From an uncultured Gammaproteobacteria bacterium (GTDB lineage Bacteria > Patescibacteriota > Microgenomatia > CAZETR01 > Amesbacteraceae), in NCBI GenBank assembly GCA_964543035.1, contig CAZIVL010000001.1:367736-431735 (forward strand): a stretch of DNA of 64,000 nucleotides, given 5' to 3'. Below are positions 3,132 to 50,726 of the stretch, one piece after another. Position numbers and translations under genes: made by a program. The stretch's first letter is position 1; each line of letters starts with the position of its first letter. Below the pieces are notes generated by a model. That model was not told the origin of the DNA and did not search any database. It worked only from the letters and a program-made list of their open reading frames with translations.

Positions 3132-3878
3132 ATGTTGACTGGCGTCGTTTTGACACACAATTGCAAAAAAGACTTAGTGCGCTGTCTGGAATCATTGGAG
3201 TTTTGTGATGAGATCTTGGTAGTAGACGACGATTCTATAGATCAGACTCTGACACTCGCAAAAAAAACCAAAGCCAAAATAATTTCCCGGTCTCTGGATG
3301 GCGATTTTGCAGCTCAACGCAATTTTGCCCTCTCTCATGTCAAGTCTGGTTGGGTGCTATTTATTGATCCAGACGAAGTAGTCTCAAAAGAACTAGCCTC
3401 AGAAATAATTCAAAATACTAGATACGAGATACAAAATACAGCTTTTTATATTCCTCGCATAGATTACATGTGGGGACGACTTCTCCTGCATGGGGATTCA
3501 GGACTTACCAAATTAGTCAGACTAGGCAAACACGACGCGGGAAAGTGGGTTTATCCAGTACATGAGATCTGGAAGGCAGATGGACCCACTGGGGAGATCG
3601 GCTTACCCTTACTTCATTATCCTCACCCAACCCTTTATCTATTTTTGTCCGAGCTAAATTTTTATTCATCGATCAGGGCCAAACAGTTTTTAAGTGAAGG
3701 AAAAACTACCAATCTGGTCGAGATCATACTCGGTCCGCCTTGGCGATTTTTTGAAAATTATTTTCTCAAGCTTGGAATATTGGATGGTACAGCTGGACTT
3801 GTTCATGCCATGTGTATGGCGTTTTATATGTTTTTGGTCGCCGGCAAGCTATGGCTCATGTCACATTCGCGCTCCTAG
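3132..3878 (+). CDS. glycosyltransferase family 2 (LPS/core-type)
   Basis: 'ILVVDDDSIDQT' and 'FIDPDE' motifs of GT2 enzymes. Confidence 0.65.
   Translation: MLTGVVLTHNCKKDLVRCLESLEFCDEILVVDDDSIDQTLTLAKKTKAKIISRSLDGDFAAQRNFALSHVKSGWVLFIDPDEVVSKELASEIIQNTRYEIQNTAFYIPRIDYMWGRLLLHGDSGLTKLVRLGKHDAGKWVYPVHEIWKADGPTGEIGLPLLHYPHPTLYLFLSELNFYSSIRAKQFLSEGKTTNLVEIILGPPWRFFENYFLKLGILDGTAGLVHAMCMAFYMFLVAGKLWLMSHSRS
3411..3442. repeat. 7-bp-period tandem array, ATACNNN family (ATACTAG ATACGAG ATACAAA ATACAGC), in frame within the GT2 CDS
   Basis: Direct reading; encodes 'IQNTRYEIQNT'. Confidence 0.7.
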
Positions 3879-4942
3879 TCCTCTCGTTTATAGCCGGAAA
3901 TATATTCAAAGTAGGTGGTGTGTCTTTACTGGACTTTTCGGTGTTCATATTCTGGATATTTACCCTCAAAAAAAACCACTTCAGACTAACCTTGCCCAAA
4001 CCACATGTAATATTTATCTTTGTAGCCTTTTTGTCACTGCTGTTGGCAACTCGGTGGGGAGCCACCTCCCAGTTTATAGGTCTGCAATATTTAGTCAGAT
4101 TTGTGATTTATTCAAGCTTGCCTTTTTTTACAAAACCATTGTTTGAAAAAAGAAGCCTTCATCACCTCATATATTATTTAGGTTTAGTCACAGTTATTAT
4201 CGGTCTATCTCAGTACATATTAATGCCTGACGTCCGATTTCTTTCTGCTTGGAATTGGGATGACCACTATTTCAGAGTGATTGGCTCTTTTCTCGATCCC
4301 GGATTTACAGGTCTTTTGCTGGTACTATTTTTTACCTTTTACTTTTTCCACAGACACCGCTTTTTGACGATCCTCACTTTTATTACCATGGCCCTTACCT
4401 ATTCCCGCAGCTCATATCTGGCATTTTTAGTTGCAGTAGGAATTATGGCTTTTCAAAAAAAATCACTCATGTTTTTTGTCAAAGGGACCCTAATACTCAT
4501 TTTGACAATTGCAATTCTTCCTCGAGCCTCCCAGGGCGAGGGGGTAAAACTAGAAAGAACCAGTACCATCCAGGCCCGACTGATCAATTGGGGTCAGTCT
4601 ATCCAGATTTTTTCAGACCATCCAGTTTTGGGAGTGGGGTTCAACACATATCGTTATGCGCAGAAAGATTATGGTTTTCTAGAAGAAAAAAACTGGCTAC
4701 AAAATCACGCCGGCGCAGGAGCCGACTCCTCTCTCTTATTTGTCGCTGCAACGACCGGAGTAGTAGGATTGTTTTTTTACTTCGGCTATCTGAAATCTCT
4801 ATACATGATACTTAATACAAAATACATGATACCCATACTAGTACACTCCTTCTTCCTCAATTCCCTTTTTTATCCAGCCACAATGTTATTGATAGCAATA
4901 TTAATCATGGTTGGTAATTCACAAGAATCTCCTTCTTTATAG
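3851..4942 (+). CDS. O-antigen ligase/polymerase-like polytopic membrane protein
   Basis: Multiple hydrophobic segments; position in the glycan cluster; Wzy_C-like loop region. Start at internal ATG 3851. Confidence 0.45.
   Translation: MAHVTFALLVLSFIAGNIFKVGGVSLLDFSVFIFWIFTLKKNHFRLTLPKPHVIFIFVAFLSLLLATRWGATSQFIGLQYLVRFVIYSSLPFFTKPLFEKRSLHHLIYYLGLVTVIIGLSQYILMPDVRFLSAWNWDDHYFRVIGSFLDPGFTGLLLVLFFTFYFFHRHRFLTILTFITMALTYSRSSYLAFLVAVGIMAFQKKSLMFFVKGTLILILTIAILPRASQGEGVKLERTSTIQARLINWGQSIQIFSDHPVLGVGFNTYRYAQKDYGFLEEKNWLQNHAGAGADSSLLFVAATTGVVGLFFYFGYLKSLYMILNTKYMIPILVHSFFLNSLFYPATMLLIAILIMVGNSQESPSL
4801..4842. repeat. 7-bp-period tandem array, ATACNNN family (about 6 units: ATACATG ATACTTA ATACAAA ATACATG ATACCCA TACTAGT)
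   Basis: Direct reading; in frame in the ligase-like CDS ('LYMILNTKYMIPILV'). Confidence 0.7.
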
Positions 4943-5618
4943 AATTGGTCGCCAGATCTTGGGCTTCAACAATTATTTTATTCTCTCCAGCATTCAAATT
5001 TACATTGGTAGAAAAATTCCCTTCCGCATCTACTATTAGTAGTCTCTGATTTACAAATATTCTGGCTCCAGGGTCAGTTACTCCTTTTACCTCTACTCGG
5101 GCAGTCCCACCCGTGATTGTGGAGCCTTCAGCCGGAGCACTCACCTCAAGCTTGGGAGTCTTTTTTAGATACAAAATATTAAGTGTTTTAGATTTTTGAC
5201 TCAGGTTTCCTCCGGCATCTTTTGCTACAGCAACCAGCTTATTTTCTCCTTCTACTAGATTCACAGTCCCAAAGTGGAAAGTTCCATCCTCGGCTGCCAC
5301 CAGATTGCCTATCTCTTCCTCGCCTCGTGACAGGTAGACTGTCACCCCAGGTTCAGTCGTTCCGGTCACCACTTGGGTGGCACTATTTGTTGCAGGATAC
5401 GGGTTGTATAAAACTGGAGGAGGAGGGGGGATAAAGTCATTTTTGTCGACCGGTTTGTTTGCCGAGTTGATTTCAGCTAAGAATGCCGCCATTTTAACGA
5501 CTGTGGGGACACCCAAGATCACAACCATAATGATAAGTACCACGGTTCCGATTCCCAAAAGTGTCGCGGTTCTCACACTCCGTTTTTCTTCCAGTCTTTG
5601 CAGCCTCGATCTATACAT
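4905..5618 (-). CDS. membrane-anchored secreted protein with proline linker and tandem bacterial Ig-like domains
   Basis: N-terminal TM helix, a PPPPP linker, and a repeated 'VTGTTEPGVTVY / VKGVTDPGARIFV' beta-sandwich-like pattern. Confidence 0.45.
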   Translation of the reverse strand: MYRSRLQRLEEKRSVRTATLLGIGTVVLIIMVVILGVPTVVKMAAFLAEINSANKPVDKNDFIPPPPPVLYNPYPATNSATQVVTGTTEPGVTVYLSRGEEEIGNLVAAEDGTFHFGTVNLVEGENKLVAVAKDAGGNLSQKSKTLNILYLKKTPKLEVSAPAEGSTITGGTARVEVKGVTDPGARIFVNQRLLIVDAEGNFSTNVNLNAGENKIIVEAQDLATNSIKKEILVNYQP

Positions 5619-5646
5619 TCTGATGGTAAAATTGTACCACGATAGC

Positions 5647-5719
5647 GCCGAAGTAGCTCAAATGGTAGAGCGAGGCTTTCGTAAAGCTTAGGTAGTGGGT
5701 TCGATCCCCACCTTCGGCT
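5647..5719 (+). tRNA. tRNA-Thr (anticodon CGU)
   Basis: Manual cloverleaf: acceptor GCCGAAG/CTTCGGC, D-stem GCTC/GAGC, anticodon loop TTCGTAA, T-loop TTCGATC, 73 nt, no encoded CCA. Confidence 0.8.
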
Positions 5720-5764
5720 CATTGGTCCATTGTCTTTCCAAAGCCTTGTCTGTATAAATATGGG

Positions 5765-7996
5765 GTGACACAGCGAAGTCTTGTACTCATAATTGCGTCT
5801 CTTCTGATGGCCTCGAGCCTGTCAATGATACTCTCGCCCAAATTGTCTTCACTTGTATATCCTCTTTTTTCCACTCAAATTCCAGGAGTATCAGAAAGTT
5901 TAGTGTCCGCAAAATCATATGATTTGGTTGAATTTGGAGTTACTTTTGTATTGGGGTTATTTATTTCAATAACAAATATTTTTCTCTTCAAGAAAGTCGA
6001 ATCCAAAGAGCATCTTCTCAGCACTCTTTTAATCTCTGCAGGAGTAATCACATTTTTGCTTACAAAATTTGCTACATATTCCGGTCGGGCCGTGTTTGGT
6101 ATCGTAATAGTGGTCGAGTTGTTTATATTATTATTGGCTATTTTCTCTTCACGAAAAAAAATATCCTCACAACACGACAATCGTCTAGTACATTTGAGTC
6201 TGCTCAATGGGATATTTTTAGGTTTTTTTTGTTTGCTGGCAATAAAGCTGATTACACCCATCGTGATTATCCCATTATCAGCGTTGGTTCTTATCCCGAT
6301 AATAAATTTGTATTTTTCTTATACTTACTCTTCCTGGGCCAAGCAGATGGCTTTTTTTCCAGGATTCTTAGTTCCAGCCATCCTTTTATTTCCAACAGAT
6401 CTTTCTAAAATAGTCATATCAGGGGCAACTATTCTTTTGATTTGGGGATTATCAACATACTTAAAACGAACTATATTTCCCATACGGCTTTTATCTTCAT
6501 ATATATTGCCATCACTTTTAGTATTTCTTGCTGCATACAACCCCACATTTGTGATAGGTAATTTTGATTCGGTCGAAGAGGGTTTTTGGAGCGCCTGGGT
6601 CCAGAGGCTCTTACAAGGCGATGTTCTGTACAAAGATGTCATGGTATATCATCCTCCAGTATTTATTTGGGGGTTATATGTATTTGAAAAATTGGTTGGT
6701 GTATCACTGGTATCCCAAAGACTATTTATGCATCTACTTCAAGTAGCAGGAGCAATCATATATCTGTTTTTTATAAAAAGAATTATAAAAAGTCGAGGTC
6801 TGGTTATTCTTCTTATGCTTGTCTATTTCGGTCTTACTACAACCGCTGTAAAAAACAATGTAGAAATACGTGTTGGTCTGGGGCTACTTAGTCTATTGGC
6901 TATTTCTTATTCAAGATTTTCGACAGCCGGAGCTCTTGCAGCTATTTCACTATTTTCCAGTGTTGAAGTAGGCCTAGCCAGTATTGTCTCCGGTCTTGCG
7001 TTCAGCTTATTTCAGTCAAAAAACAGACTGAAGAGTGTTTTTTCTTGGAGTCTAGGTTTTGTCATCGGTAGCCTTCCAATATTGGCAATCTTGGCATGGC
7101 TTGGAAGTCTCGGTCATTTTATAAATCAAATCACTTTTTATGCATCTATTTTTTCCCAGGGGTATTTCAACTCTCCAGTAGATAGGGCTATTAGTTTGTC
7201 TTTCTTTCACTGGCATATATTTAATCAATTTTTTGGATCCCCGGCTATGTGGTATGAGCTAATAAAATTAGTCACATTTTCATCAGTTATATATGGCTTA
7301 TTGAAACTTTTTTTCAAAAAGGCCTTGTCAGAAGACAATCTAATACTGAGTACTGCCATTATGGCCGGCGTGCTTACAAGAGTCGCCCTGGGCAGATCAG
7401 ACTACTTACACTTACTGTTTCCTCTTTTAGTTGTAATTGCCTTGGTAGGGTATGGCATCGATAGACTAAATGATCAAAAGCCAAATCTTGCAGTTCTACT
7501 GACTACTATTTTAGTCATGGTTTTGGCCAGAGAAGGGATCAATTCGGCTTACCTAGAAAATCTCTCTTTCCGACTCCAAACTTACGGCTCTATTGTAGAT
7601 GAGTTTCATACCTACAAGACCCCAAGAGCCGTGGGCATCCAAAGAGATTCCAGAGTCACAGCCGACTCCGAAAATGAGCTAATTTCATACATTCAGTCCA
7701 ATACCACAGCCGCGGACTCAATATTTACCTACCCTTGGTATCCCGAGCTATATTTTATTACGGATAGAAAAAATGCCACATCAGTTGATACTCCTTATGC
7801 GTTTTATACCCCAGAACATCAAAAAAAAATTCTGTCCGATCTTTCAGAAAAAAAGCCAAAGTATGTCATCTACAACCCTGACATGAATTTTGGAGGCCTC
7901 TCAGTGGGCTCTTTGTCAGATGTAGACAATTACATAAAATCACACTACAAAGTGGTCAAACAGTTTGGAAAAAACCAAGTCTTAGAATCACAATAG
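5765..7996 (+). CDS. large polytopic membrane protein, possibly ArnT/PMT-like glycosyltransferase or YfhO-like
   Basis: 743 aa with more than 12 hydrophobic segments plus a C-terminal soluble domain; next to the GT cluster. Confidence 0.4.
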   Translation: MTQRSLVLIIASLLMASSLSMILSPKLSSLVYPLFSTQIPGVSESLVSAKSYDLVEFGVTFVLGLFISITNIFLFKKVESKEHLLSTLLISAGVITFLLTKFATYSGRAVFGIVIVVELFILLLAIFSSRKKISSQHDNRLVHLSLLNGIFLGFFCLLAIKLITPIVIIPLSALVLIPIINLYFSYTYSSWAKQMAFFPGFLVPAILLFPTDLSKIVISGATILLIWGLSTYLKRTIFPIRLLSSYILPSLLVFLAAYNPTFVIGNFDSVEEGFWSAWVQRLLQGDVLYKDVMVYHPPVFIWGLYVFEKLVGVSLVSQRLFMHLLQVAGAIIYLFFIKRIIKSRGLVILLMLVYFGLTTTAVKNNVEIRVGLGLLSLLAISYSRFSTAGALAAISLFSSVEVGLASIVSGLAFSLFQSKNRLKSVFSWSLGFVIGSLPILAILAWLGSLGHFINQITFYASIFSQGYFNSPVDRAISLSFFHWHIFNQFFGSPAMWYELIKLVTFSSVIYGLLKLFFKKALSEDNLILSTAIMAGVLTRVALGRSDYLHLLFPLLVVIALVGYGIDRLNDQKPNLAVLLTTILVMVLAREGINSAYLENLSFRLQTYGSIVDEFHTYKTPRAVGIQRDSRVTADSENELISYIQSNTTAADSIFTYPWYPELYFITDRKNATSVDTPYAFYTPEHQKKILSDLSEKKPKYVIYNPDMNFGGLSVGSLSDVDNYIKSHYKVVKQFGKNQVLESQ

Positions 7997-7998
7997 GT

Positions 7999-9337: not shown

Positions 9338-9617
9338 CACCTATCATGTCAAAAGCCTTGTACCGGGCCCGCACCTCAGCTCTAAATTTGTCAGCTAGAT
9401 TACTCGAGTACTTTCCATGTCCGCCAGTCTCCATCTTTCCGCACAGCCATCTCTCGGTGTCTTCGACTATTCGCCTTACTTCTCGACCAATTTCATTGAA
9501 CTTTTCTTGGTTGGCCTCCTGATTTTTCAGATACGCCTCATGAATTTTATCAAATAGCTCAAACTCCTCTTTGTGTTTGACCAGCATGTCTTCAAATGCT
9601 TGTTTGTATCTAGTCAT
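9324..9617 (-). CDS. hypothetical small charged protein
   Basis: Intact ORF tightly packed with neighbours; no recognisable motif. Confidence 0.3.
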   Translation of the reverse strand: MTRYKQAFEDMLVKHKEEFELFDKIHEAYLKNQEANQEKFNEIGREVRRIVEDTERWLCGKMETGGHGKYSSNLADKFRAEVRARYKAFDMIGVTVS

Positions 9618-10009: not shown

Positions 10010-10813
10010 TCAACGTGATAAATCAACCAAATACTTGGCAAAAATAGGAGCGACGGTCTGGTTTGCCACCCTGTTTGGGTGAGAGTCCCAGAAGGCAAAC
10101 CGTTCATACTCTGGTTTCAGAAAACCATTTTCATCCGACAGTAGTCCAAAAAAATCAAATACATATATATTTTTCTTTCCATCCAGAAATTCATCAGACT
10201 TAAGCCAGTCAACCAATTGCGTAGCTCTTTTTGCATTATCTACGTTTGTTGTAGATTTTCGAGCCGGCGGGGGAGTCAGAAGTACAAATTTTTTGTTTGG
10301 ATATTTTTTTAGGCTTTCTCGAATTGCTTTGTAGTACTCGATGTCTTGCTGCAGCTGCTCTTCTGAGACGATTCTGGTGGTCGGATAACAGTTTTTAAAA
10401 GCAATTACGTCATAAGACAGTATTGAAGCCAGTGTTATGTCGCTCGGTTCCCTGGAAAATATTTCTGCATATTCTCTAGGACTGTTGTTACTAAGAGAAA
10501 TTTTGTAATCGGTCCCCGTTATTTGTCCTTTGTCGTCAGTCAGCCCTCTCAGGTGTGTCAGTTTAGAGAGTACCCCGCCCAATATAGGAGAGAGGTTATA
10601 GTTATGATCCCAAAATTCTATCTTGGCATCGATCTTTCGGATCTCATCTCTCACGTTTCCCTCGCGAATCAGGTTTCCTCCGGTAGAGTGGTGAATAAAT
10701 AGTATTTTTGAGTCTGCTGAAAAGTTGGCCTTTACTTGATTTTTCATCATAAAACTAGCGAGTGGCATCAAGCATGCCAATGCCAACATTATCTTATACA
10801 ATTTTAACAACAT
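10010..10813 (-). CDS. secreted hypothetical protein (possible hydrolase)
   Basis: N-terminal signal peptide 'MLALACLMPLASF'; no firm family call. Confidence 0.4.
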   Translation of the reverse strand: MLLKLYKIMLALACLMPLASFMMKNQVKANFSADSKILFIHHSTGGNLIREGNVRDEIRKIDAKIEFWDHNYNLSPILGGVLSKLTHLRGLTDDKGQITGTDYKISLSNNSPREYAEIFSREPSDITLASILSYDVIAFKNCYPTTRIVSEEQLQQDIEYYKAIRESLKKYPNKKFVLLTPPPARKSTTNVDNAKRATQLVDWLKSDEFLDGKKNIYVFDFFGLLSDENGFLKPEYERFAFWDSHPNRVANQTVAPIFAKYLVDLSR

Positions 10814-11264
10814 TAAAAAGTTGCCGAATAAGGTAAATCAGTCCCAAAAAAGTGAACAATTGGTTCAAAACTATGTTTACATAAGGGTTTGAGATGAGTT
10901 TATATGGATGATCGACTTTGATGTTCAGTCTCTTGTTGTTAAGTAGCGGCAAGCCTTGGGAAAAGATATCTACTAGGTTTGCAGCTATCATGCACGCCCA
11001 GCCATACCACCCTACATTATTTTGGATAGCCAGATACAGCACAAAACCTGTGATTAACACTCCAAAAGAGGTCATAAAAGCCAGAGTTACTTTGTCACGG
11101 CGAGACGCAAGAGGGGACTGAAACATGATCTTCATTTCTTGGGTAGGATGAGGAAACAAGTCTAGTACAAAGTGAGATAAAAAAGAGGCAGATATTCCCA
11201 AAACAGGGTTACTGGTCATCTGTGATATGACCAGACCAGCAATCACATGATTTTGAATCATCAT
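10794..11264 (-). CDS. membrane-bound metal-dependent hydrolase-like protein (YdjM/DUF457-like)
   Basis: Small polytopic membrane protein with a 'SHFVLD' His/Asp motif. Confidence 0.3.
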   Translation of the reverse strand: MMIQNHVIAGLVISQMTSNPVLGISASFLSHFVLDLFPHPTQEMKIMFQSPLASRRDKVTLAFMTSFGVLITGFVLYLAIQNNVGWYGWACMIAANLVDIFSQGLPLLNNKRLNIKVDHPYKLISNPYVNIVLNQLFTFLGLIYLIRQLFNVVKIV

Positions 11265-12042: not shown

Positions 12043-12798
12043 ATGCCTGAAATTCTTCTCTCAAATATGGCCTTGTGGCCACTAGCTGGTCTACCACTGG
12101 AATACACAGGCTTAATAGCAAGAAGTCTGGGTTATGATGGGGTCGAACACATTCCCACAAAGGTCGGAAGACGACAGCTGGCAGACGGAAAAATCGGACC
12201 AGTTGCAAGAATAAAAGCGGCCCATGTCAGCTGGAGGTCAGAACCTTACGGCGAAAGTGGTCGTAAAAAGGTCTTGGAGTATCGGAAAACCCACGGACTT
12301 CAAAAAACAGTTGCTGGACTAATAACAATTGCTACTTTGCCACTGGCAGAAGAATCAGAAGAGTATTTGACCAGGTTACAAACTATCCTAGGTAATAAAC
12401 TACCAGTGATTTTATATTCAGACAAACTGGCTGACAAACACCCGAGTCAGATGCCATTCAAGGAAAAATCTGTTCAAATCACAACAGCAGCACTAGGCCA
12501 TCTTGGTGCGACCTCACTTCCGCATCTAGTAGATATACTACACGGATTGGATGTTCATCCCTGTTATGACACAGTACACAGCCATGACTTACAGGATCCA
12601 ATCAAAGCCTTTGTTCAAACTAATTCTCGAGAAGTTCATATTGGCGTAGATAGAATTGATACCCAGGAAGATCATGGTGACACTTCCGAATTAGAAGACT
12701 ATTTACTAGCCGAAAGATTTGTGGTCGAATCGGCAATTCCCAACTTCGCCAAACTAGCCAGGGTTGCGGCCTCGTTAAAAAATTCATTGCGCTCATGA
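12043..12798 (+). CDS. hypothetical protein (possible xylose-isomerase-like TIM barrel)
   Basis: 'GYDGVEH' N-terminal motif resembling sugar-phosphate isomerase/epimerase TIM barrels; weak. Confidence 0.3.
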   Translation: MPEILLSNMALWPLAGLPLEYTGLIARSLGYDGVEHIPTKVGRRQLADGKIGPVARIKAAHVSWRSEPYGESGRKKVLEYRKTHGLQKTVAGLITIATLPLAEESEEYLTRLQTILGNKLPVILYSDKLADKHPSQMPFKEKSVQITTAALGHLGATSLPHLVDILHGLDVHPCYDTVHSHDLQDPIKAFVQTNSREVHIGVDRIDTQEDHGDTSELEDYLLAERFVVESAIPNFAKLARVAASLKNSLRS

Positions 12799-21866: not shown

Positions 21867-23220
21867 ACACTCGTTGACTGAAGCCTTAGATGGCCTGAGG
21901 TCCAAAAAATTTAGTTCCAAAGAACTCGTTCAATCGTGTTTGGATGAGATAAAAAAATCCGATCCCCAAGTCCACGCCTTCCTACACATTAACGAAAACG
22001 CCATTGAGGAAGCGGAAAAATCCGACTTACAACCAACAACTAACAACTTATTACTCAATGGAATCCCAATCGCCGTAAAAGACAATTTTTTAACAGTCGG
22101 TATCCCTACCACAGCCAGTAGCAAGGTATTGGATGGTTACATGCCACATTACGAGTCCACAGTTACCCAAAGACTCAAAAATGCTGGAGCAATTATTTTG
22201 GGCAAGACAAACATGGACGCGTGGGCTCACGGCAGCTCGACCGAGACCTCAGATTACGGACCGACAAAAAATCCTCGAAACTTGGGACATTTGCCTGGTG
22301 GTTCTTCCGGAGGATCCGCAGCAGCTGTTGCCGCTGACATGTGCATAGCAAGCATTGGTTCTGAAACTGCAGGTAGTATTCGTCAGCCAGCGGCCTGGTG
22401 TGGAGTCGTAGGTTTCAAACCCACCTACGGCCGTGTTAGTCGCTACGGTGTCGTGGCTATGGCCAGTTCCACCGATTCTCCGGGACCGCTGACCAAAACA
22501 GTTGCCGATGCCGCTCTCCTTACCAGGATTATTGCCGGTTCTGATCCATACGATGCCACTACCTCAAATGTAGAAATACCAGATTACACACAACTCACAT
22601 CAGATAAGAAGCTGAGAATTGGTCTCCCCAAAGAATACCTAGAAGTAATGGAACCAAAAGCCCAAGAATTGGTGCTTGCAGCAGCAAAAAAAATGGAAAA
22701 ACTGGGCCACGAGGTCGTTGAAATGTCTCTTATCCATCCAAAGTATTCCATTGGTGTTTACACCATAGTCCAAAGAGGTGAGGTAAGTAGTAATCTTGCC
22801 CGCTACGATGGTATTCGATATGGTCAAGATCGCAGTGTCTTCGGTGACGAAGCCAAGCGAAGGATTATGCTGGGAACATTTGCCCTCTCGTCAGGTTATC
22901 ACGACCAGTACTACACCAAAGCTCAAAAAGTTCGCACTCTTATCATTAATGATTTCAAAAAAGCTTTTGAAAAGTTTGATCTACTGATAGATCCTGCTTC
23001 TCCAGGTCCAGCTCTGGCTCTGGGAGCCACGGCAGAAGACCCCATGTTTGGAGAAAATCAGGATATATTGGTCGAGCCATCCAGTATCGCCGGTCTTCCC
23101 GGCATCAGCGTACCATGTGGAAATGTAGGAGATTTACCGATCAGTTTTGGATTTATTGGCCCTCAGTTCAGTGAGAGTCTAATATTACAAGCCGCTCATC
23201 AGTATGAATCATCCCTTTAA
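21847..23220 (+). CDS. gatA: Glu-tRNA(Gln) amidotransferase subunit A (amidase)
   Basis: Amidase signature 'GGSSGGSAAAVA', 'KDN' and 'GKTNMDA'. Start at the internal ATG overlapping the gatC end. Confidence 0.85.
   Translation: MSSMLNKHSLTEALDGLRSKKFSSKELVQSCLDEIKKSDPQVHAFLHINENAIEEAEKSDLQPTTNNLLLNGIPIAVKDNFLTVGIPTTASSKVLDGYMPHYESTVTQRLKNAGAIILGKTNMDAWAHGSSTETSDYGPTKNPRNLGHLPGGSSGGSAAAVAADMCIASIGSETAGSIRQPAAWCGVVGFKPTYGRVSRYGVVAMASSTDSPGPLTKTVADAALLTRIIAGSDPYDATTSNVEIPDYTQLTSDKKLRIGLPKEYLEVMEPKAQELVLAAAKKMEKLGHEVVEMSLIHPKYSIGVYTIVQRGEVSSNLARYDGIRYGQDRSVFGDEAKRRIMLGTFALSSGYHDQYYTKAQKVRTLIINDFKKAFEKFDLLIDPASPGPALALGATAEDPMFGENQDILVEPSSIAGLPGISVPCGNVGDLPISFGFIGPQFSESLILQAAHQYESSL
22022..22052. 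repeat. 7-bp-period tandem array, ACAACNN family (ACAACCA ACAACTA ACAACTT), in frame in gatA
   Basis: Encodes 'DLQPTTNNLL' just before the conserved 'NGIPIAVKDN'. Confidence 0.7.
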
Positions 23221-28900: not shown

Positions 28901-29479
28901 TATTCAGGAAAAATAGTCACCGTCGTAGGTGTGGTGGAATCTTGTCGCAATGTCGTGACCAAGGCCAAAGGTGAGGCCATGTGTTTTGCCAAGTTGACCG
29001 ATCTTTCCAAAGCCATTGAAGTGGTGGTCTTCCCCAAGACTTATGCCACGACCAATCTCTGTTGGCAGGTAGACAATCTGGTCATCGTCACCGGCCGGCT
29101 CGAAAATCGCTCTACCATAGAATCCGAGTCAGATGAAGAGGTCGAGCAGACCTATACTCTCATTGCCGATACAGCTGTCCAGTACACCGGCCCCGACACA
29201 GTATTGCCCAAGGCTCCCAACCGGGGGGGTCGGTCAGATATTTCATCCCAAAAACTAACAACTAACAACTTACAACCAACAACTATATCTATCACTATCC
29301 CCAAGGGTACTCCTCAGTCCAAGCTAGTAGCCCTCAACACTCTTCTTCAGTCAAACAAGGGCAGTCGTCCAGCCGAGCTAATTTTTGAAGGAGTCACCCC
29401 AGCCAAGATTTTGCCCCTCCCCTTCGGCCTCACCTGGTCTGAAAAATTAGAAAAAGATATCAAAGAGTTATTTATCTAA
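25913..29479 (+). CDS. dnaE: DNA polymerase III subunit alpha
   Basis: N-terminal PHP 'HLHVHSEYSLLDG', polymerase core and OB-fold; 1188 aa. Confidence 0.9.
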   Translation: MSANFVHLHVHSEYSLLDGLSKIKKLVKKAKEQEMNSLALTDHGVMYGTIEFYKECTKEGIKPLIGMEGYIVNRDLHDKSGKGENNHLLLLAKNHEGYKNLMKLSSIAQVEGFYYRPRFDKETLKKYSSGLIATSTCPKGEVGQLLIDGNYEEAKKAVEWYADLFGPENYYLEIQRHFYQDYFDSVKNQPKILSKLQDMVKTEKVWIDGIVKLSRELGLPLVATNDAHYINQTDATAQDALVCISTGKNVSDVERIRYIDTPTFFLRSGEDMQNIFPDYPDAISNTQKVADLCDVQIELGKWHFPKLELPEGKDAATTLKDLVAERIADHYPKVDADLQKRIDFELDTIITKGYAPYFLLMSDLVNWCSDNGIITNTRGSAAGSVVSFIIGITTVDPLRYLLPFERFLNPYRPSPPDIDLDIADDRREELIAYVTQKFGREKVAQICTFGRMLARAAVRDMTRVLGHPYAVGDRLAKVIPLGAQGFPMTIDRALYESPEFKVLYDTDPTSKQIIDLAREIEGNARHASVHAAGTVVSPTDMTDFTPLQLEPNGEKIITQYEMHACEEVGLVKFDILGIRNLSILGAARDIIEKHRGIKVNLRKIPLDDKKTFAMLARGETMGVFQMGGSGMTKWIKELRPTRVEDLMIMIAIFRPGPMANIPEFISRKNGKSKVEYMHPAMAKFLDKSYGILVYQDDVLYTALELAGYNWDSVDKFRKAIGKKIPEEMAKQHEIFVKGCQETSKMTAEEAEKLWELFVPFQGYGFNKAHAASYGIVSYQTAYLKANYPVEYMTALLTAESGNTEKIVEAIDECKRMKIKVLAPDVNKSDTDFTIEDGTSIRFGLSAIKNVGDVAITLILDARKAGPFTSLTDLCLRVDAGKVNRKVLESLIKAGALDSFGKRSAMLAGLDKIRDQGMSLNKAKSLGQFSLFGEEEGPKDTADNLPDIEEIEKKQKLNLEKELLGFYLTEHPHSQAISEAHDSGLPTHRISELYSGDYSGKIVTVVGVVESCRNVVTKAKGEAMCFAKLTDLSKAIEVVVFPKTYATTNLCWQVDNLVIVTGRLENRSTIESESDEEVEQTYTLIADTAVQYTGPDTVLPKAPNRGGRSDISSQKLTTNNLQPTTISITIPKGTPQSKLVALNTLLQSNKGSRPAELIFEGVTPAKILPLPFGLTWSEKLEKDIKELFI
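29251..29285. repeat. 7-bp-period tandem array, ACAACNN family, 5 units (AAAACTA ACAACTA ACAACTT ACAACCA ACAACTA), in frame in dnaE
   Basis: Encodes 'KLTTNNLQPTTI' in the C-terminal region. Confidence 0.75.
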
Positions 29480-31423: not shown

Positions 31424-33094
31424 GTGTCGAAAAAAACAATTTTTTTGGGTTTAATCCTTGTTGCAGCCTTTTTTCTTCGCTTTTATGATCTCGGCCTCCT
31501 CCCAAACGGTCTGCATTGGGATGAGCAGGATACCGGCTACCAGGCCTTATCTCTTTTCAAAACTGGTCGTGATTACCACGGCGTGCCCTTGCCTCTCTTT
31601 CCTCACTCTTTTGCCGACTACCGCACCCCGGTCTTCATCTACTCAGCCGTCCCAGTCGTCGCCAAACTTGGTCTGACGGCCTTTTCCGTCCGTCTCCCAG
31701 CGCTCATCTGGGGATTAGTCGGAGTGGCAGCTATGTATACACTCGCCACTCTCATACTTAGAAATTCGAAGTTAGGATTTATATCTTCAGGACTTTTAGC
31801 ATTGTCACATTGGCATCTCCAGTATTCTAAAAAAAGCGTGGAGACGATTTCTCTTAGTACCTTGTTTTTGATCGGTCTGGCTTGCTTTTTCAAGGGTCTC
31901 AAAAAGCCGGTTTGGCTCATCTGGTCTGGGTTATTTTTTGGTCTAGCAACTGCAGCCTACAGTCCAGGCAAGCTCTTTGTCCCATTAATACTTTCTACTT
32001 TATTCGTTATACATTTTACAAATCTCAGGTCACACCTAAAACACTCGATTCTTGGAGCCCTAGCATTTTTAGTAATATTCGTCCCCGTATTTGCGGACGG
32101 ATTGTGGGGCAAGTCGGGGACTCGCTTTCATGATGTCTCAGTCTTTACCGATCCCACACTTGGAACTACCGTGGATTTCAAACGGCTTGAGTCAATCCTT
32201 TCCTCAGGCATACCCAGAACAGTAGGCTTGTCTCCCAGATTGATTGACAAAATACTTATAAACAAGCCCGAAGAAGCAGTATCAAAGATTGTGACCAATT
32301 ATTTCACGACCTTAGGCAGCGAGTATTTATTTATAAAAGGGGATTCAGAGCCCCGTCATTCTCCGAGCCAAGATAGGATTGGCATGCTCCAGGCCATCGA
32401 GCTCATCCCCTTTATCCTGGGTCTCGTAGTCCTACTCACAACCCACAACCTACAACTAAAAACTATATTATTTTGGCTTCTCCTCGCCCCTCTCCCGTCT
32501 GCTCTTACTCGTGACGGGGGCGGCCATGCGGCCCGGACTTTTATTCTCCTTCCCGCCCTTATTTTGATTCTCACCCTCGGCCATAAGTTTTTATATCAAA
32601 AATCCAAAATACTTTATACGTTATACCTAATACTTTATACAGTTAGCACTTTCTACATCTATGGCTATTACTTTACAGTCTACCGGACCGAGTCGGCCAA
32701 ACCTTTTCAGTATGGGTTCGACTGGGTCATTTCCAAAGCGGTAGCCGGGTCAGCCAGTTATGACAAAGTGTATGTAGACGGCAACCGTGACACACTCCTC
32801 ATGTCGTACCTGTTTTATCACCAACAAGATCCCGCCGCGTTCCAAAAAACCCTGCCTCTTCAGGATGAAGAAATTTTTCCCGGAGTAAGAGCCCTGAGAT
32901 TTGGAAATATTTATTTGCTAGCCCCAGGTAGTAGGCACTGGACCGATATTACCAACAGTCAGACCTACACTGGTCGCAATCTCATCATCTCAGCGGCTGA
33001 CCAGCCACTTCTGACCGACCAGATCAAGACTAAGCTTGATACCCTCATCTACCCGGACACCATGACCCCGGCCTACTACGTCTTTACAAAATAA
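31424..33094 (+). CDS. glycosyltransferase family 39/83 (ArnT/PMT-like), GTG start
   Basis: 'LRFYDLGLLPNGLHWDEQDTGYQA' N-terminal signature, more than 10 TM helices; reading starts at GTG 31424. Confidence 0.7.
   Translation: MSKKTIFLGLILVAAFFLRFYDLGLLPNGLHWDEQDTGYQALSLFKTGRDYHGVPLPLFPHSFADYRTPVFIYSAVPVVAKLGLTAFSVRLPALIWGLVGVAAMYTLATLILRNSKLGFISSGLLALSHWHLQYSKKSVETISLSTLFLIGLACFFKGLKKPVWLIWSGLFFGLATAAYSPGKLFVPLILSTLFVIHFTNLRSHLKHSILGALAFLVIFVPVFADGLWGKSGTRFHDVSVFTDPTLGTTVDFKRLESILSSGIPRTVGLSPRLIDKILINKPEEAVSKIVTNYFTTLGSEYLFIKGDSEPRHSPSQDRIGMLQAIELIPFILGLVVLLTTHNLQLKTILFWLLLAPLPSALTRDGGGHAARTFILLPALILILTLGHKFLYQKSKILYTLYLILYTVSTFYIYGYYFTVYRTESAKPFQYGFDWVISKAVAGSASYDKVYVDGNRDTLLMSYLFYHQQDPAAFQKTLPLQDEEIFPGVRALRFGNIYLLAPGSRHWTDITNSQTYTGRNLIISAADQPLLTDQIKTKLDTLIYPDTMTPAYYVFTK
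32431..32465. repeat. 7-bp-period tandem array, ACAACNN family (ACAACCC ACAACCT ACAACTA AAAACTA)
   Basis: In frame in the GT39 gene; encodes 'LLTTHNLQLKTI'. Confidence 0.7.
32609..32643. repeat. 7-bp-period tandem array, ATACNNN family, 5 units (ATACTTT ATACGTT ATACCTA ATACTTT ATACAGT)
   Basis: In frame in the same GT39 gene; encodes 'KILYTLYLILYT'. Confidence 0.7.
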
Positions 33095-42326: not shown

Positions 42327-42611
42327 TTATAAACTCCACGAGTTCTGAGTGTAATTCACAACTCGTTTATGTACGGGGGTAATTACACTCAAATGTTTTC
42401 TGCTAGCTTTGTCTTTTACAAAGTCTCCGTTCAGATGCACTAGTATCCATGCAGTATTTCCTTTCGTGTGTCTCACATCACCAAATACAATTCCGTCGCC
42501 ATTATCAAACATTACAAAGTCTCCTTTAACTGCCAGCATTTGGTCTAACTCAGGATCGAGCTCCGGTTCAAATTCTGGTTCAGGTTCTGGACCCCACAGA
42601 CTCTCGATCAT
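42327..42611 (-). CDS. hypothetical small protein with acidic EPEPEFEPELDPELD N-terminal tract and beta-rich C-terminal domain
   Basis: ORF; N-terminus 'MIESLWGPEPEPEFEPE'. Confidence 0.3.
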   Translation of the reverse strand: MIESLWGPEPEPEFEPELDPELDQMLAVKGDFVMFDNGDGIVFGDVRHTKGNTAWILVHLNGDFVKDKASRKHLSVITPVHKRVVNYTQNSWSL

Positions 42612-42649
42612 ATGGACGGAATATACTCGAATGCTGTACAGTAAATCAA

Positions 42650-43231
42650 ATGAGCAAGATTCCCATTATCCTCCTCTTTATCCTCCTCATTTCTGGCATT
42701 TTGGCCGTAGGCTACTTTTGGGTCAGATCTCTTATGAGCCAGAACCCCACTTATGCCCAAAAACTCGATCCCGGCACCTTTGCCTCTAGCTTAAGGCTGG
42801 TGCGCGAAGTGGACCCGGAGACCAAAAAACTCATTAGACAATATTATGTCTTGGATACCCAAAACAATTCTTCTACCGACTTTTTCAACTGCAAATACAC
42901 TCTAGTCTCCAAAGGTGACCAAAAAAAGTACGACGCTTTTTTCAAAGATTTTACCCTCAAAAATTGCAAAGTCTTTACCCAGGTCCAGCCCCATTATGAT
43001 TGCACCCTGACCAACAAGCTCAATGAATGGCTAAATTATGACAAGTCCAGAAATCGTGACAAATTCTTAAGTCACGCAACAGCCACCATCGCCATGTCCC
43101 GCTTTTTTGACAGCCAGACCACGACTGCCAATGCGTATCTTACCCAAAATGCTCTTTCTGACATCTACAGCGTAGACGTCACTTGCAAGCTAAAAAACGG
43201 CCGCGGCGTCTTCCACACTCAGACATTTTAG
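42650..43231 (+). CDS. hypothetical membrane-anchored protein
   Basis: N-terminal TM segment 'IPIILLFILLISGILAVGYFW'. Confidence 0.35.
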   Translation: MSKIPIILLFILLISGILAVGYFWVRSLMSQNPTYAQKLDPGTFASSLRLVREVDPETKKLIRQYYVLDTQNNSSTDFFNCKYTLVSKGDQKKYDAFFKDFTLKNCKVFTQVQPHYDCTLTNKLNEWLNYDKSRNRDKFLSHATATIAMSRFFDSQTTTANAYLTQNALSDIYSVDVTCKLKNGRGVFHTQTF

Positions 43232-44908: not shown

Positions 44909-45014
44909 AGCAATATATTGACATAGAACACAAAATATTCAACATTCTTACTCTCAAATAATTGCCAAAAAGGCTAGATCTTGCGATGTACATCCGGCCT
45001 GCTGGCCATGAAAA

Positions 45015-46117: not shown

Positions 46118-46125
46118 TTTGCGTA

Positions 46126-47583: not shown

Positions 47584-47692
47584 CTTTATTATCGCCCTAA
47601 TTACTTTTACCAGCACGTCCACTCTGTGTCTTAACGTCTCGATCTCGCGTAAGATCAATGTTTCTGGGGTCACAAGTTTATAATAGCACTGC

Positions 47693-48343
47693 ATGCAAAT
47701 AATTCACGGAGATAATCAGATCGCTTCCAGACAACTTTTTTTATCAAAAAAAGTCGAAGCTCAAAAAAAAGGTTTAAATATTGTTGACCTGGCAGGAGCA
47801 GACCTCACATTGCAAGATCTAAAAAATTCTCTCTCATCAACTACACTTCTAGGCGAGTCCAATGCGGTTTTTGTCGAAGGCTTTTTTGGCAGGCGCCCCA
47901 GCAATGAAAAAAAAGCCATTGCAGAGTTCATCAAATCCGATCCAAATACTCCGGTTATTTTTTGGGACGGCAAAGACATTTCCTCCCAACTGCTCTCTAT
48001 TCACCAATCGCTAATCACTAAACAGGATCTTCCCAAGCATCTATTTACTTTTATAGACAACTGGCAGCTTACTCTATATCACCAAGCCCTCAAATCTACA
48101 GATCCAGAGCCTATCATGGCTCTTTTGGCCAAGCGCATTCACGATCTAATTTTAGTCAAAGAAGGTCGTGGAAAATTTCCCAGCTGGCAAGCCTCAAAAC
48201 TAGAATTTCAAGCAAAAAAATACAGCCTCTCACAACTCACTACTTACAACCAACAACTTCTCGATATTGATTACAAAAACAAATCCGGAGATCTCCCTTA
48301 TGACCTGGCGGCAGCACTGGAGTTGTGGCTTCTAAAAATGTAA
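47693..48343 (+). CDS. hypothetical protein, possibly a short DNA polymerase III delta subunit (HolA)-like protein
   Basis: Weak N-terminal resemblance to HolA clamp-loader delta. Confidence 0.3.
   Translation: MQIIHGDNQIASRQLFLSKKVEAQKKGLNIVDLAGADLTLQDLKNSLSSTTLLGESNAVFVEGFFGRRPSNEKKAIAEFIKSDPNTPVIFWDGKDISSQLLSIHQSLITKQDLPKHLFTFIDNWQLTLYHQALKSTDPEPIMALLAKRIHDLILVKEGRGKFPSWQASKLEFQAKKYSLSQLTTYNQQLLDIDYKNKSGDLPYDLAAALELWLLKM
48225..48259. repeat. 7-bp-period tandem array, ACAACNN family (ACAACTC ACTACTT ACAACCA ACAACTT)
   Basis: Shares the exact 16-mer 'CTTACAACCAACAACT' with the dnaE and gatA arrays but is read in another codon phase ('LTTYNQQLL'). Confidence 0.7.
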
Positions 48344-48353
48344 ACTGGTCTCA

Positions 48354-50726
48354 ATGCCCAAACTCTTTGGTACTTCTGGTATCCGCGGGTCCTCCGAAGG
48401 ATTTTTTACAAATCAGTTTTGTCAGACTCTGGGAGAGGCATTTGGCAACTGGCTCAAGTCAAAAAATCGCGAAGGAGACGTGGCGATAGCGTATGACCCC
48501 AGAGACAGCAGTCCCAGGATCAAAGACGAATTTCTCAAAGGACTAGCGAGCACTGGCTACGAGATTTTAGACGAGGGCGTGATTCCCACTCCTGCATTGG
48601 CATATTTTGTAAACAAAAATCCCCATCTAGCAGGCGGGGTCATGATCACCGGTTCTCATATCACCTCAGATCTCAATGGTATCAAATTCTTTTTAGGTAG
48701 CGGCGAAATCCAAAAAACCCACGAAGTCGAAATCGAGAAAATAATCTCGTCTATTCCAATCACAAATCACCAATCACAAACAACCAACATCAAAGTTGAT
48801 TCCGCAGCTCGTGACTTATATCTCGATATGTTGGTGGGTCTTGCCAGTCTTCCCTACCCTGAGTGGACAGTCGCAGTAGATACAGCCAATGGTGCCCAGT
48901 CTGAGATCATCCGCCCGCTTTTTGAGAGACTCAGTCTCACGCTTGTGACGACCGGTGATTGTGACATCCAATCTCCTTATTTCGTTCCTCGTGATACCGA
49001 GGTTCAGACATCGACCGCTGACCTGCAAAAGCACGTTATCTCAAACAAAGCTGATTTAGGAGTAGCCTTCGATGCCGACGGCGACCGAGTAGTATTCATT
49101 GATCCTAAAGGCCAGTTTGTCCCGGGTGACTACTCATGCACACTGCTTGCTCGGGAGGATGATTCAGAAAAAATAGTTACCACAGTTAGTACGAGCTCGG
49201 TCGTGGATAGCATAGGCAAGCACATATTTCGCACTCCGGTGGGATCTCCATTTGTGACAGCCAAGATGCAAGAAGTCGGAGCCACTTTTGGCTTTGAGCC
49301 CAATGGTGGCAGTATCAGCTCAGATCTTCACTACAGTCGCGATGGGGGATCGACTTTTATTAAGCTTCTCAATCTCCTAAAAAAATCTGGCAAAAGCCTG
49401 GACGAACTGGTCTCCACCTTGCCCCACTACGCGATGTACAAAGACAAAATAGATTGCCCGGTCAACAAATATCAGCAGATTTACGATACTGTCTCGGAAA
49501 AATATTCAGATCACGAGCAAGACAAAACCGATGGCCTAAAGGTGTTTCTAAACAGTACAGACTGGCTGCTTTTCCGCGGATCTGGCAACGCTCCCGAGTT
49601 TAGAGTGATAGTCCAAGCTCACGCCGAAGCTACAGCCCGCGACCTCGCCCTCAAATCCCTAAAGCTCATAAAAAGCATAATCAATCCTAATAATGAAATA
49701 CAAAATACTAGATACAAGATACAAGATACATTAAATGTCCTGAGCTCCATCCGCCTCTTCCCCGACCAATGCGCTCAAGTCCTCTCAGATCAAGGGATTT
49801 TTCGGATCCCCAACATGTGTAGTCTGGTGGATAACATCGTAGTCTCTGGCATGGGCGGATCTGCCTTGGGTGGACGCATAATTGACGCTCTATCACGAAG
49901 GATTCTCAAAGTCCCTCTCTCCATCTCTACTCAATACAATTTGCCAAATTTTGTAAACTCAAAGTCACTGGTCATCATCTCGTCCTACTCAGGTGACACC
50001 CAGGAAACGGTCGAAAGTTTTCATGAAGCCAAAGCAAAAAATGCCCAGATTTTTGTCATTGCCACGGGGGGACAGCTGGCAAAGCTAGCAGCAGAATTCA
50101 ACGTCCCGATATATTTAGTAGATCCCATCCACAACCCCAGTGGTCAGCCGCGCCTAGGCTTAGGTTACAGCGTCATGTCCATGCTAGCTGTCCTCAACCG
50201 CTGTGGCCACATCAGAATTCCCCACAGTATCGACACTCTCCCCAGCTATCTAAAAGAGCACCAAGACGAAAGTCGGTTCGAAGCAGTTGCCCAAAAACTG
50301 AGTGGCAAGATCCCAATCTTGATATCCGGAGAGCATCTAGTAGGTAGTAGTCATGCCATAAAAAACATGTTCAACGAAAACAGCAAAACTTTTTGCGCAA
50401 GTTTCGACCTGCCTGAGGCCAATCATCATCTTCTAGAGGGCTTGCAATTTCCCAAGACCAATACAGACAATCTGGTGGCTGTCTTTGTAGGCTCACCTTA
50501 TTACAATCCTGAGCTAGGAAAGACCATCCTTGCCACAAAATCCGTGTTTGAAAAAAATCATATTCCAGTTGTAAATCTTGAGTTTGATTCTCCCAATCCT
50601 CTGACCGAAAGTCTGGAGTATCTCCAGGCAGGAGCTTTTATTTCATATTTCTTAGCTAGCCTCAATGGCGTTGACCCGGGCCCCATTCCCTATGTACACT
50701 GGTACAAGGATCAAATTAGTTTATGA
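48354..50726 (+). CDS. phosphomannomutase/phosphoglucomutase fused to phosphoglucose/phosphomannose isomerase (SIS domain)
   Basis: N-terminal 'FGTSGIRG' and 'TGSHITSD' PMM/PGM motifs over about 440 aa; C-terminal roughly 300 aa with a 'VVSGMGGSALGGRI' SIS/PGI-PMI motif. Confidence 0.6.
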   Translation: MPKLFGTSGIRGSSEGFFTNQFCQTLGEAFGNWLKSKNREGDVAIAYDPRDSSPRIKDEFLKGLASTGYEILDEGVIPTPALAYFVNKNPHLAGGVMITGSHITSDLNGIKFFLGSGEIQKTHEVEIEKIISSIPITNHQSQTTNIKVDSAARDLYLDMLVGLASLPYPEWTVAVDTANGAQSEIIRPLFERLSLTLVTTGDCDIQSPYFVPRDTEVQTSTADLQKHVISNKADLGVAFDADGDRVVFIDPKGQFVPGDYSCTLLAREDDSEKIVTTVSTSSVVDSIGKHIFRTPVGSPFVTAKMQEVGATFGFEPNGGSISSDLHYSRDGGSTFIKLLNLLKKSGKSLDELVSTLPHYAMYKDKIDCPVNKYQQIYDTVSEKYSDHEQDKTDGLKVFLNSTDWLLFRGSGNAPEFRVIVQAHAEATARDLALKSLKLIKSIINPNNEIQNTRYKIQDTLNVLSSIRLFPDQCAQVLSDQGIFRIPNMCSLVDNIVVSGMGGSALGGRIIDALSRRILKVPLSISTQYNLPNFVNSKSLVIISSYSGDTQETVESFHEAKAKNAQIFVIATGGQLAKLAAEFNVPIYLVDPIHNPSGQPRLGLGYSVMSMLAVLNRCGHIRIPHSIDTLPSYLKEHQDESRFEAVAQKLSGKIPILISGEHLVGSSHAIKNMFNENSKTFCASFDLPEANHHLLEGLQFPKTNTDNLVAVFVGSPYYNPELGKTILATKSVFEKNHIPVVNLEFDSPNPLTESLEYLQAGAFISYFLASLNGVDPGPIPYVHWYKDQISL
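48758..48792. repeat. 7-bp-period tandem array (AATCACA AATCACC AATCACA AACAACC AACATCA)
   Basis: In frame in the PMM domain; encodes 'ITNHQSQTTNI'. Confidence 0.65.
49698..49732. repeat. 7-bp-period tandem array, ATACNNN family, 5 units (ATACAAA ATACTAG ATACAAG ATACAAG ATACATT)
   Basis: At the PMM/PGI domain junction; encodes 'EIQNTRYKIQDT'. Confidence 0.75.

Follow-up and report, generated by a model that had tools for sequence, protein, structure and literature searches.

ATACNNN heptad arrays in an Amesbacteria genome: a putative cis-element laid over variable segments of coding sequence

Several genes within a 64-kb stretch of contig CAZIVL010000001.1 (hereafter the window; array coordinates are window positions), which derives from the Candidatus Amesbacteria clade, contain short runs of tandem seven-nucleotide units with the core ATAC and three free bases (ATACNNN arrays). 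The question raised by this locus is what such runs represent, i.e. a trace of replication errors, a repeat of the encoded proteins or a signal written in the nucleic acid. Our analysis, which is sequence-based, showed that they form a defined, strand-specific and selected nucleic-acid element laid over coding sequence at tolerant positions. As to what this element does, we tentatively favour the view that the arrays act in cis as a strand-specific signal under selection, which a putative protein binding in a 7-nt register would probably read on mRNA.

The initial annotation had placed four ATACNNN arrays in coding regions, and an exact-core scan located all of them there, on the + strand, while no exact-core ATAC array was present on the - strand of the window. 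The first lies in a gene for a family-2 glycosyltransferase (GT2; 3132..3878, +; Glycos_transf_2, Pfam PF00535, E=8e-15), where the array at 3408..3442 (+; ATTCAAA ATACTAG ATACGAG ATACAAA ATACAGC) consists of four exact ATAC units at 3415-3442 preceded by an ATTC unit at 3408, which gives five heptads encoding IQNTRYEIQNT. The second (4801..4841, +) is found in a gene of the Wzy_C/O-antigen-ligase family (3851..4942, +, in an open reading frame (ORF) from 3812; Pfam PF04932; the ATG at 3851 agrees with the database protein P0241). It is composed of five exact in-register units at 4801-4835 and a shifted sixth ATAC at 4835, in register -1, and encodes YMILNTKYMIPIL.

The third host, a GT39/PMT_2 membrane glycosyltransferase gene (31424..33094, +; Pfam PF13231), carries two ATAC arrays and one array of another core family. 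In the array at 32595..32643 (+) two degenerate heptads (ATCAAAA ATCCAAA) precede five exact units at 32609-32643, the whole encoding KILYTLYLILYT, and a decayed array at 31988..32019 (+) has three of its five cores intact (ATACTTT CTACTTT ATTCGTT ATACATT TTAC). As the annotation had also noted, the ATAC and ACAACNN families occur together in this gene, the ACAACNN array being at 32431..32463 (+, sense). The fourth host encodes a phosphomannomutase fused to a bifunctional PGI/PMI isomerase (PMM-PGI; 48354..50726, +; PF02878/9/80 (PGM_PMM I-III), PF01380 (SIS) and PF10432 (bact-PGI_C)), and its array at 49698..49732 (+) has five units, ATACAAA ATACTAG ATACAAG ATACAAG ATACATT, encoding EIQNTRYKIQDT. 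All window ATAC arrays lie on the sense strand, 280-1340 nt inside continuous ORFs. The peptides quoted previously agreed with the translations, and the sequence said to be common to the GT2 and PMM-PGI arrays held in part: the 15-mer CAAAATACTAGATAC is exactly common to both (at 3411 and 49701, respectively), but the 18-mer ATACAAAATACTAGATAC is present only at 49698, as the GT2 copy starts with ATTC.

Such arrays are not expected by chance. When the window was scanned without bias for 4-mers that recur four or more times at a constant spacing (periods 4-12), with 20 dinucleotide shuffles as the control, six arrays of period 7 (four ATAC and two ACAAC-type) were detected versus none in the shuffles, and 0-1 arrays at each of the other periods, so that period 7 alone is enriched. 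Tandem Repeats Finder reported period 7 at the same four ATAC places, with 76-88% matches. With as many as three mismatches allowed, a search for (ATACNNN)4ATAC found 13 overlapping matches in five places, all on the + strand, against an expectation of 0.00 (100 shuffles), and it was this mismatch-tolerant search that revealed the decayed array at 31988-32019. The head-to-tail arrangement of 7-nt units which characterizes long simple-sequence repeats (LSSRs) and microsatellites is therefore present beyond chance. However, only four of the seven unit positions are fixed and each array contains three or four different NNN, and therefore the units are not near-identical over their whole length.

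The evidence for selection comes from related genomes. Exact copies of the window proteins were also found in a 508-kb NCBI contig and in the Logan assemblies of SRR16481186 and SRR16481187. L001, which is another assembly of the strain, has an identical PMM-PGI gene and array, and sequence of the same strain from another sample (L209) shows 100% identity over 11.3 kb, arrays included. The length variation among strains that the initial annotation had envisaged was not seen, as the copy number of the arrays was the same in the three assemblies of the strain and no array length variants were detected among 2-4 related lineages per gene.

The closest orthologues compared at the DNA level (L002, L123, L124, L205-L208) share 64-82% amino-acid identity with the window proteins. 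In the Wzy gene, five ATAC cores are in register in four lineages (window, L208, L207, L205/L206), which have 65-74% nucleotide identity and a third-position identity of 0.44-0.52, and all substitutions within the array fall in NNN, including non-synonymous ones (M/K/Q, N/D, K/R, M/F). Over 33 nt of the GT39 array, 11 third-codon positions among them, the window and L124 do not differ at all, against a gene-wide third-position identity of 0.43, and the array of L123 has only two differences, both in NNN. All four ATAC cores of the GT2 array are kept in the orthologue from L207. In the PMM-PGI orthologue of L002 (72% amino-acid identity) the linker likewise carries an ATAC array of five units, but one of its own, in which the NNN differ. 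The decayed GT39 array, on the other hand, retains four of five cores in L123 and none in L124, which implies array gain or loss within the clade.

When the alignment columns of Wzy (four lineages), GT39 (three) and GT2 (two) were pooled, none of the 56 ATAC core columns was variable, versus 12 of 33 NNN columns (P=1.5e-6) and 1285 of 3052 remaining gene columns (42%; P=1.3e-13). Third-codon positions within the cores never varied (0/18), compared with 725 of 1018 such positions elsewhere (71%; P=2.8e-10). Because the cores, silent positions included, are invariant while NNN and the rest of the genes vary, these alignments show that the purifying selection on the 4-nt core acts at the nucleotide and not at the peptide level. 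Moreover, the same DNA units (e.g. ATACTAG ATACAAG) occur in different codon phases in different genes, and thus the likeness of the arrays is at the DNA/RNA level, not at the protein level.

Where in the proteins do the arrays fall? Alignments were made with 44 (PMM-PGI), 55 (GT39), 59 (Wzy) and 70 (GT2) homologues; those of the first three proteins come nearly all from Candidatus Amesbacteria, the Microgenomates group and Patescibacteria, which identifies the source of the window as a member of the Candidate Phyla Radiation. The segments carrying the arrays are present in all homologues and are the most variable part of each protein, or among the most variable. The PMM-PGI array, which had been assigned to the mutase-isomerase junction, indeed lies in the interdomain linker, a hypervariable segment of similar length in the 44 homologues. 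The GT39 array covers a variable transmembrane helix, with no indel in most of the alignment, the Wzy array a length-variable loop between helices, whose shortest version is that of the window clade, and the GT2 array a loop of ordinary length, where the alignment entropy reaches its maximum for the protein (2.92 bits). The suggestion that the arrays prefer domain boundaries or loops was thus borne out. None of these alignments revealed extra protein length at an ATAC array, and they show that the ATAC arrays are not insertions. The PMM-PGI fusion itself is a single protein of ~790 residues across the Amesbacteria homologues, while remoter matches are separate PMM proteins.

It had been proposed that ancestry of the encoded residues would speak against the significance of the arrays. 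The residues proved not to be ancestral to the protein families, being common only to a clade of at least ~64% amino-acid identity; it is the segments that are ancestral, i.e. positionally homologous and variable rather than inserted. The core forces the residues I, Y, T and N/D, and the spacers follow the local needs of the protein, as NNN is AAA, AAG, TAG or GAG (hydrophilic residues) in soluble linkers and TTT, GTT, CTA or ATG (hydrophobic residues) in membrane segments. This shows that the protein can make free use of the three spacer bases.

A further property is the size of the arrays. Among the matches listed from 25 loci of the Candidate Phyla Radiation (CPR), ATAC arrays of 3, 4, 5, 6 and 7 units numbered 3, 3, 34, 1 and 4, respectively, and in the window and its relatives those of 3, 4 and 5 units numbered 1, 1 and 6. 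In these counts a size of five heptads (~35 nt) is sharply preferred, in contrast to the length distribution of microsatellites. The heptad directly upstream is a degenerate copy (mean of 2.25 out of 4 core matches vs a background of 1.07); arrays are usually preceded by one or two such heptads, and their 3' end is sharp. In five of the six arrays of the clade, units 1 and 4 have the same NNN, and this 21-nt (7-residue) super-period suggests that in-frame duplication had a part in building them.

The module is not limited to this clade. An exact-pattern scan with one genome per species yielded at least 120 loci (25 CPR and 95 non-CPR among the matches listed). Perfect (ATACxxx)n heptamer microsatellites were listed for many phyla, but short arrays with heterogeneous NNN accounted for 18 of the 25 CPR loci versus 15 of the 95 non-CPR loci listed (odds ratio 13.7, P=1.6e-7). 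In Parcubacteria-type, Saccharibacteria and related genomes the typical layout is a dyad, (GTATNNN)5, a 3-90 nt spacer and (ATACNNN)5, with the arms always in this order (10/10). The dyads are mostly intergenic, with arms 0-16 nt from the adjacent stop or start codon and the ATAC arm in sense orientation 2-16 nt before the start codon, and they fold as long hairpins (z -4 to -9). No GTAT partner arm was found for the window arrays on either strand with up to three mismatches. A metagenome scan with the PMM-PGI profile retrieved mostly distant PMM genes and 3-4 Microgenomates loci.

Of 16 independent cases of single arrays within ORFs, ~15 run in the sense direction (six in the window clade and nine in other CPR; the antisense one is in L090). 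The hosts in other CPR are GT1, DUF2298, DegT (twice), MurB, GT2, MiaB, TsaD and MiaA, six of these nine being envelope or glycan genes. Other cores, i.e. AATT, ACAAC, TAGGT/ACCTA, AATC and ATTC, behave alike in CPR loci.

Repetitive extragenic palindromic sequences and bacterial interspersed mosaic elements (REP/BIME) are intergenic palindromic elements, and the CPR dyads resemble them in being imperfect palindromes of 60-95 nt with stable folds, located right after stop codons. They differ in that the dyad arms consist of heptads sharing a 4-nt core that does not change, the order of the arms is always the same and single arms occur inside genes. In one GT4 glycosyltransferase the linker joining the two Rossmann domains contains, in frame, a complete GTAT/ATAC dyad of 89 nt (L085 2730-2818), which encodes KVFSMKYKVSSIKKINNEFEILNTKYFIPNTS; its peptide ILNTKYFIP is nearly the same as ILNTKYMIP of the window Wzy array.

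How could such an element be read? The 50-nt RNA windows centred on the four arrays have minimum free energies of 0 to -0.5 kcal/mol, compared with gene means of -5.8 to -7.1, and they rank in the least-structured 1.7-16% of the windows of their genes. We hypothesize that the element may be read single-stranded, most likely on the mRNA, by a putative reader which would touch about four bases every 7 nt. A candidate would be a protein that oligomerises or has several domains, such as an OB-fold RNA binder of the cold-shock/S1 type or one of the KH type. The element might then mark a set of transcripts for common post-transcriptional handling, the host genes here all being envelope-glycan genes. 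An intragenic copy would persist only where the protein tolerates the residues forced by ATAC, and the arrays would sit at linkers and loops because only there are these residues tolerated.

The closest described case are the TAACTGA heptamers of marine Beggiatoaceae, Cyanobacteria and some Bacteroidetes, which occur in 2-6 copies, in forward orientation, a few nt from start codons. Their proposed binders, put forward without experiments, are ribosomal protein S1, Csp (with one CspB on each heptamer) and CsrA (MacGregor 2015, PMC4679880). Both systems consist of short sets of tandem 7-nt units, and forward TAACTGA sets end a few nt before start codons, as do the ATAC arms of CPR dyads, whereas the window arrays lie 280-1340 nt inside their ORFs. 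The few in-gene TAACTGA copies are found in peripheral, poorly conserved protein parts, a reader binding single-stranded RNA has been proposed and no experimental function is known. The differences are in the unit sequence, in the fixed bases (TAACTGA units are identical throughout, while four of seven bases are fixed in ATACNNN) and in the embedding: ATACNNN is written through genes in sense orientation, whereas forward TAACTGA has stops in all frames and hence cannot sit sense inside genes. Particular to the arrays described here are the size fixed at five units and the conservation of silent sites across species; the arrangement in hairpin dyads is new, as is the occurrence in CPR hosts. 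We adopt this class of mechanism, i.e. a reader binding single-stranded RNA, as the most likely one, with modest confidence.

Several observations weigh against the proposed mRNA-level reading. Although all six ATAC arrays of this genome, including one in a further GT2 gene (L209 7846-7880), are located in envelope-glycan genes, which make up ~20% of the coding sequence, they represent only three independent loci, and the lower G+C content of such genes and the weaker constraint on them may confound the association. Part of the sense bias could stem from genes being co-oriented with replication, as ~75% of the window coding sequence is on the + strand. A search of the window for a cold-shock-domain signature was negative, and no reader protein has come to light. 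When the sense and antisense folds and the G-U pairs of five oriented dyads were compared, the outcome was split 3 to 2, with no preference for RNA over DNA. The position of the linker array of PMM-PGI is offset by ~18 nt in L002 (drift), and in the GT2 orthologue of L205 ATTC-core heptads stand at the same spot, with indels (turnover); together with the identity of units 1 and 4, these cases show that the arrays owe their form in part to local duplication and turnover. Finally, several cores (ATAC, ATTC, ACAAC, AATC, AATT, TAGGT/ACCTA) occur together in CPR genomes, so that a model with a sequence-specific reader needs several readers or a loosely specific one.

There is also a broader hypothesis, which we consider doubtful. 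CPR genomes might use an overlapping code in which family-specific five-heptad arrays in mRNAs, placed in coding linkers and loops or in maskable hairpin dyads by start codons, define post-transcriptional regulons, which putative proteins binding in a 7-nt register would read; ATAC would mark the envelope-glycan pathway and ACAAC a housekeeping set in the Amesbacteria clade.

Other ways of acting on RNA or transcription were also considered. The reading of the arrays as internal promoters was rejected, as no sigma-70-like site overlaps any window array. Internal translation starts were rejected as well, since no in-frame ATG, GTG or TTG occurs within ~20 codons after the PMM-PGI or GT39 arrays. 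An Rfam search of the window and of ten dyad-bearing loci, with the gathering score of the covariance models as threshold, returned only tRNAs, and the arrays match no known RNA family.

Instead of RNA, the arrays might be recognized as double-stranded DNA iterons. The omega repressor of pSM19035, a ribbon-helix-helix (RHH) protein, has heptad operators of the sequence 5'-WATCACW-3', which are contiguous 7-bp units, several per site, in direct and inverted blocks. A small cooperative DNA binder of this kind, e.g. an RHH dimer, could occupy one heptad each and wrap the helix, acting in transcriptional control, nucleoid organisation or segregation, and the cooperative reading of one protein per heptad is a plausible way to read the ATAC arrays. 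Adjoining 7-bp units, conserved in the core and free in the spacer, fit such a binder, as do the direct and inverted blocks of the CPR dyads and the arms which cover 35 bp before start codons in divergent intergenic regions (L085 4231-4326, L083 1094-1160). ToxR, with the heptad operator TTTTGAT, is a second case.

Nevertheless, we regard recognition as duplex DNA as unlikely. The sense orientation of ~15/16 in-ORF arrays is not obviously required by a duplex binder, and many cores would need many binders. The omega sites have another core sequence, belong to plasmid promoter and centromere regions rather than coding sequence and show no strand polarity relative to genes. The window arrays have neither this location nor a cognate RHH gene: they lie far from gene starts, carry no sigma-70-like promoter, and the Pfam hits of the window ORFs include no RHH domain and no omega-like gene.

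The arrays might also spread without any function for the host, by molecular drive, i.e. as uptake signals similar to the DNA uptake sequences (DUS) of Neisseria or the uptake signal sequences (USS) of Haemophilus, by biased gene conversion or as a mobile mini-element, being tolerated in unconstrained segments. Inverted pairs of DUS act as terminators after stop codons, and in-gene copies of USS have been reported in poorly conserved segments. The copies described here are likewise dispersed over coding and intergenic DNA, with inverted pairs after stop codons and in-gene copies only in segments of low conservation; the arrays of GT2 and PMM-PGI resemble each other closely (the common 15-mer), and within the clade arrays have been gained and lost. 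We find this explanation quite unlikely, however. The density of ATAC arrays in this genome is low (~6 per 74 kb), the strong sense bias is unexpected for uptake signals, and arrays of 35 bp in which 57% of the bases are fixed lend themselves poorly to homologous conversion. The origin from a mobile element is unsupported, as the arrays are not insertions.

Another possibility is that the arrays are neutral by-products of slippage, that is ordinary LSSRs which were born in tolerant loops and are now decaying. The short tandemly repeated repetitive sequences (STRR) of cyanobacteria belong to the heptanucleotide LSSRs. The arrays described here share with LSSRs the period of 7, the over-representation and the occurrence of many unit sequences in many phyla. 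According to the summary of Mrazek 2007 given in PMC4679880, heptanucleotides are the commonest class of long simple-sequence repeats in prokaryotes and are attributed to polymerase slippage. Slippage would also account for the perfect (ATACxxx)n microsatellites of many phyla, the 21-nt super-period of 5/6 arrays, the drift in the PMM-PGI linker and the ACAAC array of the enolase gene, which coincides with a gain of 4 amino acids relative to L002. LSSRs, however, are near-perfect, variable in copy number, mostly intergenic and ascribed to slippage, while the ATAC arrays are of the core-plus-spacer type, fixed in number, intragenic and under purifying selection.

Decay should strike all seven positions equally, which is contradicted by the invariance of the core (0/56, against 12/33 in NNN) and of its silent positions (0/18). 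Furthermore, the copy number is fixed at five, the four host proteins have not gained length and the arrays remain in register at 65-74% nucleotide identity. We therefore strongly disfavour slippage as a complete explanation and consider it improbable. The proposal of a general mechanism acting on 7-bp units can be retained in the sense that period-7 arrays with several cores exist both here and in other CPR. It finds no support as a mutational or hypervariable mechanism, as there is no change of copy number and no protein lengthening, and the cores are invariant at synonymous sites.

Phase variation, in which gain or loss of a 7-bp unit would shift the frame and switch surface-glycan genes, is highly improbable. 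What speaks for it is that the hosts are all envelope-glycan genes, the classic targets of phase variation, and that a 7-bp unit shifts the frame. But contingency loci have perfect repeat tracts, the length of which switches the reading frame or promoter, whereas the units here are imperfect, and slippage is thereby suppressed; the arrays are situated in the centre or the 3' portion of genes, none of the copies breaks the reading frame, and copy number is the same in the three strain assemblies and in 2-4 related lineages. In addition, PMM-PGI is a central metabolic enzyme, and similar arrays are found in TsaD, MiaA, MiaB and MurB of other CPR.

Selection for a 7-residue protein repeat, I-x-[ND]-T-x-Y-x, with the DNA periodicity as a side effect, might be suggested by the resemblance of IQNTRYEIQNT to EIQNTRYKIQDT and of the Wzy to the GT4 peptide mentioned above, but it is effectively refuted by silent core positions that never change (0/18 vs 71% elsewhere), by the same DNA units in different codon phases and the same arrays in intergenic DNA, and by encoded segments that are the least conserved parts of each family. 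A diversity-generating retroelement was also rejected: the ATAC adenines are invariant and any base can stand at the variable positions, neither a second copy nor a template was detected, and the window ORFs contain no reverse transcriptase domain.

Literature searches on heptanucleotide or heptad repeats in the Candidate Phyla Radiation or Patescibacteria returned nothing relevant. While period-7 repeats of bacteria are well known, the core-plus-spacer design, the five-unit size, the sense embedding with frozen silent sites, the GTAT-ATAC dyad and the concentration in CPR appear to be undescribed in the literature searched. Heptanucleotide repeats have no established function and are usually dismissed as slippage products, while here a heptad array in essential and envelope genes is under measurable purifying selection, with silent sites frozen across species. 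The element is testable, as it offers a 35-nt probe, a clear strand and clear orthologous controls. Gene regulation in CPR is almost unknown, and a widespread cis-code, if true, would be a useful entry point. For annotation, it matters that the Tyr/Ile/Thr/Asn-rich segments are dictated by a nucleic-acid signal and not by protein function.

Apart from the array in the GT39 gene, the ACAAC family is represented in the window by arrays in the genes for GatA (22022-22054), DnaE (29251-29286), a HolA-like protein (48232-48257), PMM, between domains I and II (48758-48780), enolase, exactly between the N and C domains (53473-53505), and a UvrA-like protein (62777-62820). All are on the sense strand and in variable loops or linkers. 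The heptads in the loop between PMM domains I and II (AATCACA AATCACC AATCACA) fit the WATCACW consensus of the pSM19035 omega repressor, presumably by coincidence within an A/C-rich heptad family. The L002 orthologue of enolase, against which the 4-residue gain was noted, is without an array, and the enolase array, unlike the ATAC arrays, may have grown by insertion. The array in the UvrA-like ORF, which runs off the window end, consists of ACTGACA ACTGACA ACTCACA ACTGCGA and encodes LLTTDNSQLRT, which we take to be an extra loop relative to E. coli UvrA. A third core family, ATTCNNN (ATTCGTG ATTCAAA ATTCAGC), is present at 316-336, in the first ORF of the window. The ATTC heptads of L205 (9575-9604) stand exactly where the window GT2 gene has ATAC, the change of core being concerted across units.

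Heptad dyads with complementary cores (e.g. GCTGANN...TCAGCNN, ATGGCTN...GCCATNN and AAGGNNN...CCTTNNN) were also noticed in unrelated high-GC metagenome contigs (G+C 0.64-0.70; L164, L168, L184, L187, L188, L190, L195). The arm-spacer-arm heptad hairpin is therefore not confined to CPR. Among IMG/VR viral contigs (L210-L289), (ATACNNN)4ATAC is frequent, mainly in giant-virus MAGs (metagenome-assembled genomes) and unassigned contigs, and several contigs have multiple consecutive matches, suggesting long microsatellites.

As for the surroundings of the arrays, four ORFs of the window, one of which encodes 743 aa, matched no Pfam family at E<=1e-4 (5765-7996, 10010-11264, 12043-12798 and 42409-43231). 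A parB gene (L209 1308-2132) is located ~8 kb upstream of the window start. The GC skew is negative (C>G on the + strand) over the entire window, including the minus-strand genes at 33.4-39.5 kb, and the way in which skew, gene strand and replication direction are related may be unusual.

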